Below are positions 27,156-27,612 of a stretch of 64,000 nucleotides of DNA, one piece after another (positions within the stretch are counted from its first letter, which is position 1; every line of letters begins with the position of its first letter). This DNA is from a bacterium. Lineage in GTDB: Bacteria; Elusimicrobiota; Elusimicrobia; Elusimicrobiales; UBA9959. Under the pieces are notes generated by a model. The model searched no databases. It was given only the letters and a program-made list of their open reading frames with translations, and had not been told where the DNA came from. A program made the position numbers and the translations under genes. The stretch covers positions 6,240 through 70,239 of the forward strand of contig JAJYJH010000010.1 of the NCBI GenBank assembly GCA_021789695.1, written 5' to 3'.

Positions 27156-27189
27156 AAAAACCGGTAAGCGGGCGTCGTCGTATTGCCTG

Positions 27190-27218
27190 TTGTGTGCCGC
27201 TCTATATATGCGTATAAT
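27190..27218 (+). promoter_or_regulatory. candidate arsR promoter (TTGTGT-17-TATAAT)
   Basis: TATAAT at 27213-27218 ends 7 nt before the arsR ATG (27226), implying a leaderless or near-leaderless mRNA. The -35-like TTGTGT lies at 27190-27195. Confidence 0.4.
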
Positions 27219-27227
27219 AGCATATAT
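27204..27227. promoter_or_regulatory. inverted repeat ATATATGC-N8-GCATATAT (candidate ArsR operator)
   Basis: Perfect 8-bp arms (27204-27211 / 27220-27227) bracket the TATAAT box in the hgcA/arsR divergent region. Confidence 0.5.
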
Positions 27228-27612
27228 GAAGGCGGACGAACGCGATATCAAAACGGTGGTCATGGCGCTAAAGGCCCTGGCCGACGTCAACCGCCTGCGG
27301 ACTGCCGCGCTGCTGGCCTGGGCCGGGCGCGAGCTCTGCGTCTGCGAACTGGTGGACGCGCTGCGCGAAAGCCAGTACAACGTGTCGCGCTATTTGGGCG
27401 CGCTCTGCGCGGCGGGCCTGATCCGCAAGGAGAAGAAGGGCCGTTGGGCCATGTACGCCCTCGCCAGCGGCCGGGGCCCGCTCGCCGGATATATAGGCGG
27501 GCTGGGCTGGCCGCGGCCCCGCCGCGGCGTCATCGCCGGTGACATCGCCCGGCTGGAGCACAGGCTTGCGCTGCGGCGCCGCGGCGTATGCGTGATCGGG
27601 GGGAATTGCTGA
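27226..27612 (+). CDS. arsR: ArsR/SmtB family metalloregulator
   Basis: LKALADVNRLRTAALL...ELCVCELVDAL...YNVSRYLGALCAAGLIRKEKKGRWAMYAL. This gives a wHTH with the ELCVC As(III)-type site. First gene of the ars operon. Confidence 0.85.
   Translation: MKADERDIKTVVMALKALADVNRLRTAALLAWAGRELCVCELVDALRESQYNVSRYLGALCAAGLIRKEKKGRWAMYALASGRGPLAGYIGGLGWPRPRRGVIAGDIARLEHRLALRRRGVCVIGGNC

Follow-up and report, generated by a model that had tools for sequence, protein, structure and literature searches.

Can mercury methylation and arsenic resistance be switched by one repressor from a single site? The question is raised by a stretch of 64,000 nt from a bacterium of the Elusimicrobiales (GenBank assembly GCA_021789695.1, contig JAJYJH010000010.1, positions 6,240–70,239 of the forward strand), which we will call the window. 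In it hgcA, of the mercury-methylation pair hgcAB, and arsR, the first gene of an arsenic-resistance (ars) operon, are divergent. The start codon of hgcA is the CAT in positions 27153–27155, an ATG on the minus strand, and that of arsR is the ATG in positions 27226–27228 on the plus strand; 70 bp (27156–27225) separate them. A perfect inverted repeat around a TATAAT box is found in this interval. We consider it fairly probable that this palindrome is an ArsR operator around a two-directional promoter shared by hgcAB and the ars operon; hgcAB in this group of Elusimicrobia are probably under an arsenic-type switch. The analysis is a comparison of sequences throughout, and what it shows directly is the anatomy of the sequence, its conservation, the identities of the genes and their synteny. 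From these we infer where transcription starts, that ArsR binds, what its inducer is and that the window organism co-regulates the two operons.

The palindrome has perfect 8-nt arms, ATATATGC (27204–27211) and GCATATAT (27220–27227), separated by the 8-nt spacer GTATAATA. It had been described before in a sequence-only reading of the window, and the positions, the gap, the arms and the two promoter hexamers given there were all found correct when the sequence was read again. The elements of the region are as follows.

27204–27211, no strand: left arm of the predicted operator, core ATATGC 27206–27211; it lies in the −35/−10 spacer of arsR, downstream of the leftward −10, and its core is invariant in 27–28 of 28 sequences
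27220–27227, no strand: right arm of the predicted operator, core GCATAT 27220–27225; within it lie the predicted start of arsR transcription (27224 or 27226) and the A and T of the start codon
27213–27218, plus strand: −10 of arsR, TATAAT, inside the spacer of the palindrome, kept in 26–27 of 28 sequences
27190–27195, plus strand: weak −35 of arsR, TTGTGT, 17 nt upstream of the −10
27214–27222, minus strand: leftward extended −10, TGcTATTAT, overlapping the top-strand −10; hexamer positions 2 and 6 base-pair
27156–27205, minus strand: predicted 5' leader of hgcA, about 50 nt, with no Shine-Dalgarno (SD) sequence and an open 17-codon frame from ATA (27205–27203) to a TGA overlapping the hgcA ATG (ATGA)

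Conservation of the palindrome

Species-representative genomes were scanned with an ArsR alignment, which gave 80 loci. Twenty-seven of them are Elusimicrobia orthologues with 52–82% protein identity; together with the window they form a conservation set of 28 sequences, with ArsR identities of 52–99%. A distant set is formed by 53 ArsR orthologues with 38–50% identity, from many phyla. The closest protein relatives of the window ArsR are found in Elusimicrobia/Elusimicrobiales metagenome-assembled genomes (MAGs). Such assemblies can hold errors; the key features are nonetheless repeated across many independent assemblies. Statements about gene content are bounded by the 5-kb flanks of each locus.

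By itself the palindrome was rejected as significant. Perfect 8-nt inverted repeats with a spacing of 0–12 nt are common in the window: they have 58 placements, versus about 22 in first-order Markov simulations, and most of them are GC-rich terminator-like hairpins followed by runs of T. The exact palindrome motif occurs once in the window, even when up to three mismatches are allowed, with 0.05 occurrences expected. Since the palindrome alone is unremarkable, the weight of the argument lies on the comparison with other genomes. The sequence-only reading had suggested such a comparison of related intergenic regions, and its result is clear: the element cATATGC-[A/G]TATAAT[A/T]-GCATAT-ATG is present upstream of arsR in all 27 Elusimicrobia orthologous loci, so that a 6-8-6 inverted repeat over the −10 and the start is conserved in 28 of 28 sequences, with core arms identical in 27–28 of them. 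In this set the positions matching 27204–27228 have an information content of 1.0–2.0 bits; the intergenic flanks of the palindrome carry just 0–0.5 bits and codons 2–12 of arsR just 0.1–0.7 bits. By its conservation the palindrome is more than chance.

Symmetry of this kind could belong to the promoter itself, with two −10 elements, two transcription starts and two start codons in mirror image and no repressor bound. The −10 elements are inherently near-symmetric and often give divergent starts about 18 bp apart, and in the loci described below as class A each arm runs from a −10 to a start codon. Yet the arms are also invariant in nine loci without a divergent gene. There the left arm is located in the −35/−10 spacer, where promoter function makes no demand for its conservation; its invariance supports the operator reading. 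The distant set agrees with this. Among its 53 orthologues, 30 have ATATGC-N8-GCATAT with no more than one mismatch in the 150 nt upstream of arsR; they belong to Nitrospirota, WOR-3, Ignavibacteria, Terriglobia, Zixibacteria, Spirochaetes and other phyla. Elsewhere in the distant loci there are only 9 such sites in 431 kb, several of which head operons with arsR further downstream. The spacer in these phyla is often not −10-like and the distance from the box to the start codon is variable; conservation of the arms thus does not depend on the promoter. Variants of the arms are symmetric (ACATGC..GCATGT and GTATGC..GCATAC), and the box tracks an ArsR subfamily with the common recognition helix QY[NQ]VS[RK]HL. 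Promoter symmetry with no bound repressor is thus a very improbable explanation of the arms.

A second box is found in two sister loci (L007, 4006–4060, and L010, 4016–4070), within its own TTGACA-17-TAAAAT, which is followed by GGAGG and an ATG. The gene after it codes for an ArsP/SO_0444-like permease (its scores are below the family cutoffs) that has a TPFCACS motif, and arsR-arsM follow directly downstream. The operator-promoter module is thus reused there for an ordinary leadered gene. The idea that ArsR binds the palindrome, first put forward from the window alone, gains from these comparisons: the box across phyla, the shared recognition helix and the second box before another arsenic-related gene all favour it. 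The box is the predicted operator of this ArsR subfamily, and in the form ATATGC-N8-GCATAT it may be used for predicting ArsR regulons in many phyla.

Predicted promoters on the two sides of the palindrome

On the arsR side the distance from TATAAT to the ATG is 7 nt in 24 of the 28 sequences, 5 nt in three and 9 nt in one. In most relatives the −35 is a complete TTGACA, spaced exactly 17 nt from TATAAT, and the three positions of the TTG in the −35 are kept in 28, 23 and 24 of the 28 sequences. After the hexamer come the bases a-g-c-a-t-a-t-A, with T-then-A steps at the 6th and 8th nucleotide; the predicted arsR start is therefore 27224 or 27226, which leaves a leader of 0–2 nt. There is no SD sequence ahead of arsR. 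AGGAG or GGAG is found 5–9 nt ahead of many genes of the window, for example at 3062, 8177, 32096 and 47073; the scan for such sites was made over six-frame open reading frames (ORFs), it is noisy due to shadow ORFs and GC-rich DNA, and it is used solely to show that AGGAG-type sites are common in the genome.

The position of the arsR start is shared by most orthologues, 71 of the first 101 listed, which are called at 128 aa. Two upstream candidates, TTG 27190 and ATG 27208, were rejected: they overlap the −35 and the left arm. The second of them, the in-frame ATG of the left arm, gives rise to spurious 'MRIIAYM' or 'MHIIAYM' extensions in some gene calls. A downstream candidate, ATG 27262, was also rejected. 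It encodes Met13, which in the ortholog alignment is found in this lineage alone and therefore offers no conserved alternative start, and its GGTGG is only 2 nt away. In one sister locus (L011, 4969–4995) an insertion parts the box from arsR; the ATG of the right arm there opens an ORF of 8 codons, whose TGA overlaps the arsR ATG (ATGA). This would be the pattern expected if ribosomes enter at a 5'-terminal AUG. A leaderless arsR mRNA, predicted in the sequence-only reading, is well supported by the comparative evidence: the fixed 7-nt spacing, the lack of an SD and the lack of conservation of Met13.

There are other candidate leaderless genes in the window, with TAGAAT-N8-ATG at 19222 and 40099 and TATACT-N9-ATG at 4615. 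None of these ATGs has an SD, and each shares its long ORF with other candidate starts. TATAAT is enriched in the window, with 21 occurrences versus 6.3 expected.

If arsR were leadered, the palindrome could act in the RNA, as a hairpin hiding the AUG or as a terminator or attenuator. The RNA from 27196 to 27236 does fold at −18 kcal/mol, with a z-score of −3.5. However, the conserved TTGACA exactly 17 nt from the TATAAT of the loop places the start inside or after the 3' arm, variants in a single arm (L006, L008 and L026) are uncompensated, the window has no co-oriented gene upstream, and the flanking CCGC/GCGG pairing is specific to the window. Nor is there a match to an Rfam family: the scan gave a lone sub-threshold match, H19_2 (E = 0.046, 20.8 bits, gathering score 50), inside the hgcA coding sequence, which we take as chance. 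A hairpin or riboswitch was rejected for these reasons, namely the missing Rfam match, the uncompensated arms and a promoter inside the hairpin; a function of the palindrome in RNA is hardly credible.

The other side of the palindrome leads to hgcAB. The genes of the locus are the following.

25870–26163, minus strand: hgcB, ferredoxin of the mercury-methylation pair, 97 aa, ending in Cys-Cys (...SSCC); NF040864 HgcB_ferredoxin, 122.6 bits, cutoff 99
26160–27155, minus strand: hgcA, corrinoid protein, 331 aa, ATG at 27155; NF040863 HgcA_corrinoid, 417.6 bits, cutoff 275
27226–27612, plus strand: arsR, ArsR/SmtB repressor, 128 aa, with ELCVCE; Pfam HTH_5 PF01022, 30.9 bits (cutoff 22), and NF033788, 65.3 bits (cutoff 55)
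27652–27960, plus strand: second gene of the operon, here called X, a small Cys-rich HesB/IscA-like protein with an AAGGGA SD; Pfam Fe-S_biosyn, 40.4 bits
27971–28402, plus strand: arsC, arsenate reductase of the thioredoxin type (LMW-PTP fold); Pfam LMWPc, and TIGR02691 at 115.5 bits, below the equivalog cutoff
28402–29457, plus strand: acr3, arsenite efflux transporter, its start overlapping the arsC stop (ATGA); TIGR00832, 438.2 bits, cutoff 282.8

The HgcA translation carries the cap-helix motif NVWCAAGK, which matches N(V/I)WCA(A/G)GK, and its N-terminal peptide ..KVTFSPKL aligns with the orthologues. A weak terminator-like hairpin is found at the end of hgcB (25875–25860, minus strand). 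The X protein has 102 aa, a CCG motif and a C-terminal CGCGCGH; its gene follows arsR (or arsM) in most of these ars operons and is present in hgcAB-type and arsM-type loci alike.

The divergent arrangement of the window, hgcB-hgcA beside arsR-X-arsC-acr3, is found in 18 of the 27 species-level loci. We also sampled hgcA in metagenomes, where 80 loci were fetched: 4 are the closest contigs and the other 76 are more distant (about 50% identity). Three of the four closest contigs have the same divergent arrangement together with the box. The bottom-strand hexamer TATTAT (27219 to 27214) and the TATAAT of the top strand are shifted by one base relative to each other, and as a result A27214 pairs with position 6 of TATTAT and T27218 with its position 2. 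This is the geometry of the 18-bp class of bidirectional promoters, with opposite hexamers and positions 2 and 6 base-paired. Divergent starts are predicted at about 27207 on the minus strand and at 27225–27226 on the plus strand.

A leftward promoter is favoured by two comparisons. In six species (L002, L003, L004, L005, L015 and L025) and in the metagenome contig L081 the hgcA frame opens at the ATG of the left arm, and a conserved N-terminal peptide, ..QK[VI]xL.., falls in the frame of this ATG. In the six species the two start codons thus flank the 20-bp core, as CAT-[ATATGC N8 GCATAT]-ATG, and as judged from this layout hgcA can only be transcribed from within the box in loci of this kind. 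The second comparison concerns base 27219, the last one of the spacer. It is A in 22 of 22 loci with hgcAB, which gives TATTAT (TAGTAT in L004), and T in 9 of 9 loci without hgcAB, which gives AATTAT and loses the first T of the hexamer (Fisher p = 5e-8, counting species irrespective of kinship). Loci with and without hgcAB are interleaved in the neighbour-joining tree of ArsR. An oppositely oriented hgcA promoter had been proposed from the AT-rich elements of the window; the left-arm ATG of six species and the hexamer TATTAT, intact only in hgcAB loci, now speak for it.

The 5' end of hgcA has four forms in these loci.

Class A: the hgcA ATG is the left-arm ATG; L002, L003, L004, L005, L015, L025, L081
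Class B: the left-arm ATG opens an ORF of 17–18 codons, which ends in a TGA that overlaps the hgcA ATG (ATGA); L001, L013, L014
Class C: the ORF from the left-arm ATG stops within 25 nt of the hgcA ATG; L009, L011, L016, L018/L082, L020
Class D: a GGAG or GGGGA SD precedes hgcA; L019, L021, L022, L023, L084

In class D there is no left-arm ATG in L021, L022 and L023, and in the other two loci the ORF that begins at it is very short. By its geometry the window falls in class B, with a frame open from 27205 to the TGA at 27154–27152, but this frame begins with ATA. The T at 27203 which makes it ATA and not ATG recurs in four independent assemblies of a relative with a 99% identical ArsR, and is therefore real. 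The predicted leader of the window hgcAB mRNA has no upstream AUG. The peptides of the class B upstream ORFs are not conserved, the frame alone is, and the 8-codon ORF before arsR in L011 is of the same design. These upstream ORFs with their ATGA overlap suggest a coupling by termination and reinitiation from a leaderless AUG.

The mechanism that we propose would work as follows. A symmetric two-directional core promoter, TATAATA (27213–27219), would be enclosed by a 24-bp operator. Rightward, TTGTGT and TATAAT would start transcription at the arsR ATG or within 2 nt of it and give a leaderless arsR-X-arsC-acr3 mRNA. Leftward, TGcTATTAT would start the hgcAB mRNA at about 27207–27205, with a leader of about 50 nt in the window; in several sister species the hgcAB mRNA would itself be leaderless, because hgcA begins there at the ATG of the left arm. 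Both −10 elements and both start sites would lie under an ArsR dimer bound to the half-sites ATATGC and GCATAT, so that RNA polymerase would be blocked in both directions. The inducer, most probably As(III), would bind the Cys site and release ArsR, and arsenic resistance and hgcAB would be turned on together.

Proposed shared control in the window and the probable signal of its ArsR

Several observations weigh against this mechanism, some on the promoter and others on the sensor. The −35 of arsR in the window is weak: TTGTGT matches TTGACA at 3 of 6 positions, and because of it a consensus promoter scan of 26900–27500 called no promoter. We do not take this silence as evidence against a promoter, as the same scanner scores the orthologous site of L019, TTGACA-17-TATAAT, at 12/12. 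No −35 can be recognised for the leftward promoter, which would depend on its TGn motif. With an ATA in the left arm, hgcA 51 nt further on and no SD, the hgcA side is the weakest link of the model for this window. The association tests count species and not independent evolutionary events. As for the sensor, one Cys of the classical metal site is replaced by Val in the window ArsR and a Cys-Cys pair by Arg-Arg, as described below, and the identity of the inducer, and even the inducibility of this ArsR, are uncertain.

The points on the hgcA side favour another explanation, in which the palindrome would serve as ArsR operator and leaderless arsR promoter only, hgcAB of the window would have a separate, unrecognised promoter outside the control of ArsR, and the two operons would be neighbours without shared regulation. 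It has for it the distance of hgcA from the box, the absence of both an SD and a left-arm ATG in the lineage and the lack of a −35. Sister loci also contribute: in L019 and L021–23 a GGAG SD precedes hgcA itself, some 60 nt from the box, and L011 has a TAGAAT-N7-ATG of its own. Against this, no other bottom-strand TAnnnT hexamer is found between the box and hgcA, TGcTATTAT is intact in the window, its first T tracks the presence of hgcAB (22/22 vs 0/9), and the six sister species of class A would express hgcA only from within the box. A separate hgcAB promoter is thus an unlikely explanation, although it keeps a real share of plausibility.

The signal is less clear than the architecture. The sequence-only reading had described an As(III)-type sensor from the motif ELCVC, and this holds in part. 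Cys38 and Cys40 of ELCVCELV match the first two Cys of ELCVCDLC in R773 ArsR (Cys32, Cys34 and Cys37); the third is replaced by Val. Nearly all Elusimicrobia orthologues conserve P-C-C at residues 98–100, together with Cys122 and a C-terminal Cys. The window ArsR has the last two (Cys122 and Cys128), but its residues 99–100 (27520–27525) are Arg-Arg, coded by CGC CGC, versus the Cys-Cys coded by TGC TGC in its relatives. The same Arg-Arg is shared by a 99% identical protein on four other contigs. This replacement may change or abolish the sensing of an inducer. With an incomplete set of Cys in the sensor, the case for arsenic as the signal rests on the regulated genes. All genes found under the box are arsenic genes: arsC and acr3 in the window, arsM (NF008823, 276.6 bits vs a cutoff of 263) and the ArsP-like permease in sister loci.

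The architecture could then be right and the effector a different one: Hg(II), Cd/Pb/Zn, methylarsenite or a thiol-reactive metabolite; ArsR might also be non-inducible by now. Such a view is in line with the two Cys left in the alpha-3 site and the loss of the Cys-Cys pair, and also with the solved structures, as the closest relatives by sequence are CadC proteins, which sense Cd/Pb/Zn; SmtB and HlyU are also among the best. The regulator of strain ND132, discussed in the next section, responds to S-adenosylhomocysteine (SAH) besides arsenic. On the other hand, two Cys are enough for the induction of R773 ArsR (10.1101/2022.10.17.512643), and the genes under the box are those of arsenic. We regard an effector other than As(III), or none, as unlikely, and keep As(III) as the proposed inducer of the shared operator.

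The regulated genes have a further peculiarity. Seven loci have arsR-arsM-X-arsC-acr3 without hgcAB (L007, L008, L010, L012, L017, L024 and L027), and nineteen have hgcBA divergent from arsR-X-arsC-acr3 without arsM (the window, L001–5, 9, 11, 13–16, 18–23 and 25). The operator is common to both, and no locus combines the two forms within ±5 kb. One MAG, SKS1.bin115, holds both (L008 and L023), so that the exclusion is a property of each locus and not of the genome. A bolder reading of these data would count hgcAB as a genuine part of an ars regulon that responds to As(III), in the regulatory slot which arsM has in sister loci. The native role of HgcAB would then be tied to arsenic, for example to the methylation or handling of arsenite, and mercury methylation would be a side reaction; both messages would start at AUGs in the operator half-sites, with one dimer covering the promoter and all starts. 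We find this quite unlikely as a whole, and mention it as the alternation of hgcAB and arsM from locus to locus gives a concrete comparative footing to the proposed link between HgcAB and arsenic.

Outside this group the box is absent upstream of hgcA in all 76 more distant metagenome loci, so that the arrangement is clade-specific. About 16 of the 80 metagenome loci have a co-oriented arsR-like gene that lies upstream of their hgcA; these genes code for proteins 29–38% identical to the window ArsR and none has the box. In L083 (2230–2520) an hgcA 72% identical to that of the window is divergent from arsR-arsC-acr3, with an ArsR 41% identical, an intergenic region of 140 nt and no box; the locus looks like an independent version of this arrangement of genes. 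Downstream of hgcB the window has a P-type ATPase (23327–25744) which is 96% identical to the copy in L011 (1061–3475); identities between the same two loci are 86% for HgcB, 75% for HgcA and 72% for ArsR. This suggests that the ATPase gene was recently exchanged between lineages.

The native function and the regulation of hgcAB are open questions, and the control of expression is one reason why the abundance of hgcA is a poor predictor of methylmercury production. For an entire clade of methylators that are uncultured, this locus offers a cis-regulatory model which is precise and can be tested, and in which the 20-bp box of a canonical arsenic-resistance repressor would be shared between hgcAB and arsC/acr3. 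The model predicts that exposure to arsenite induces the methylation genes in these Elusimicrobia.

Comparison with known systems

Classical ArsR/SmtB repressors (R773 ArsR, SmtB and CadC) are homodimeric winged-helix proteins which bind an AT-rich inverted repeat over their own promoter and are released when a metal or metalloid binds to their Cys ligands. Unlike these cases, the operator described here would enclose the −10, reach into a leaderless start codon and serve another promoter in the opposite direction as well. In our literature search no description of the 6-8-6 box ATATGC-N8-GCATAT as an ArsR motif turned up.

Symmetric bidirectional promoters have overlapping opposite −10 hexamers with positions 2 and 6 base-paired and starts about 18 bp apart, and are the commonest class of bacterial bidirectional promoters (Warman et al., preprint 10.1101/2020.01.31.928960; NAR 2026, PMC12825309). 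The locus resembles PacrA/acrR in that the gene of an autorepressor and a regulated operon lie on opposite sides. It differs from it in having start codons at or next to both predicted starts, which would give leaderless messages on one or both sides, and in the coincidence of the repressor half-sites with the two segments from −10 to start. Its mirror-image leaderless starts would be a compact case of one operator controlling a bidirectional promoter. A leaderless arsR has a precedent in Cupriavidus metallidurans CH34, where it was found by mapping of start sites, and leaderless mRNAs are enriched for transcription factors (PMC7563307). CH34 belongs to another phylum and its arsR to another operon, with no report of a bidirectional operator shared with another pathway.

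In MAGs hgcAB has been found co-located with acr3, arsC, arsM and arsR-like genes (McDaniel et al. 2020, PMC7438021; Peterson et al. 2025, PMC11984097). Among the same reports, a lake metatranscriptome showed an association between lower hgcA/gyrB transcript ratios and arsR-like genes located ahead of hgcA. These studies stay at the level of gene neighbourhoods and describe no operator, bidirectional promoter, leaderless start or arrangement specific to Elusimicrobia. Our literature search found no description of an operator or promoter for hgcAB of the ND132 type or for the present system, whose cis-element is defined here, nor of a divergent hgcA-arsR promoter, this box or its leaderless starts. 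The control of hgcAB by ArsR and its co-location with ars genes are thus already published; the divergent architecture with a shared operator and leaderless starts appears to be undescribed.

The closest known system is that of Pseudodesulfovibrio mercurii ND132, where hgcAB transcription is under the control of an ArsR-like regulator, by which mercury methylation is linked to arsenic (Gionfriddo et al., bioRxiv 10.1101/2022.10.17.512643; Goni-Urriza et al. 2020 as cited there). As in the window, a regulator of the ArsR/SmtB family adjoins hgcAB. In ND132, however, arsR2 is directly upstream of hgcAB, co-oriented and co-transcribed with it, with no other ars genes at the locus (10.1101/2022.10.17.512643); the statement in the sequence-only reading that published hgcAB-linked regulators are not divergent was right in this case. 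ArsR2 has a four-Cys motif (Cys47, Cys49, Cys86 and Cys88), and homologues were found in Desulfovibrionaceae only (10.1101/2022.10.17.512643). The window ArsR is of the CVC type, with Cys38, Cys40, Cys122 and Cys128, its gene is divergent and heads a full arsR-X-arsC-acr3 operon, and the organism belongs to Elusimicrobia. Instead of a dedicated regulator within the hgcAB message, we would have in this clade, and confined to it, the ArsR of a canonical ars operon, shared with hgcAB through a bidirectional and partly leaderless operator-promoter.

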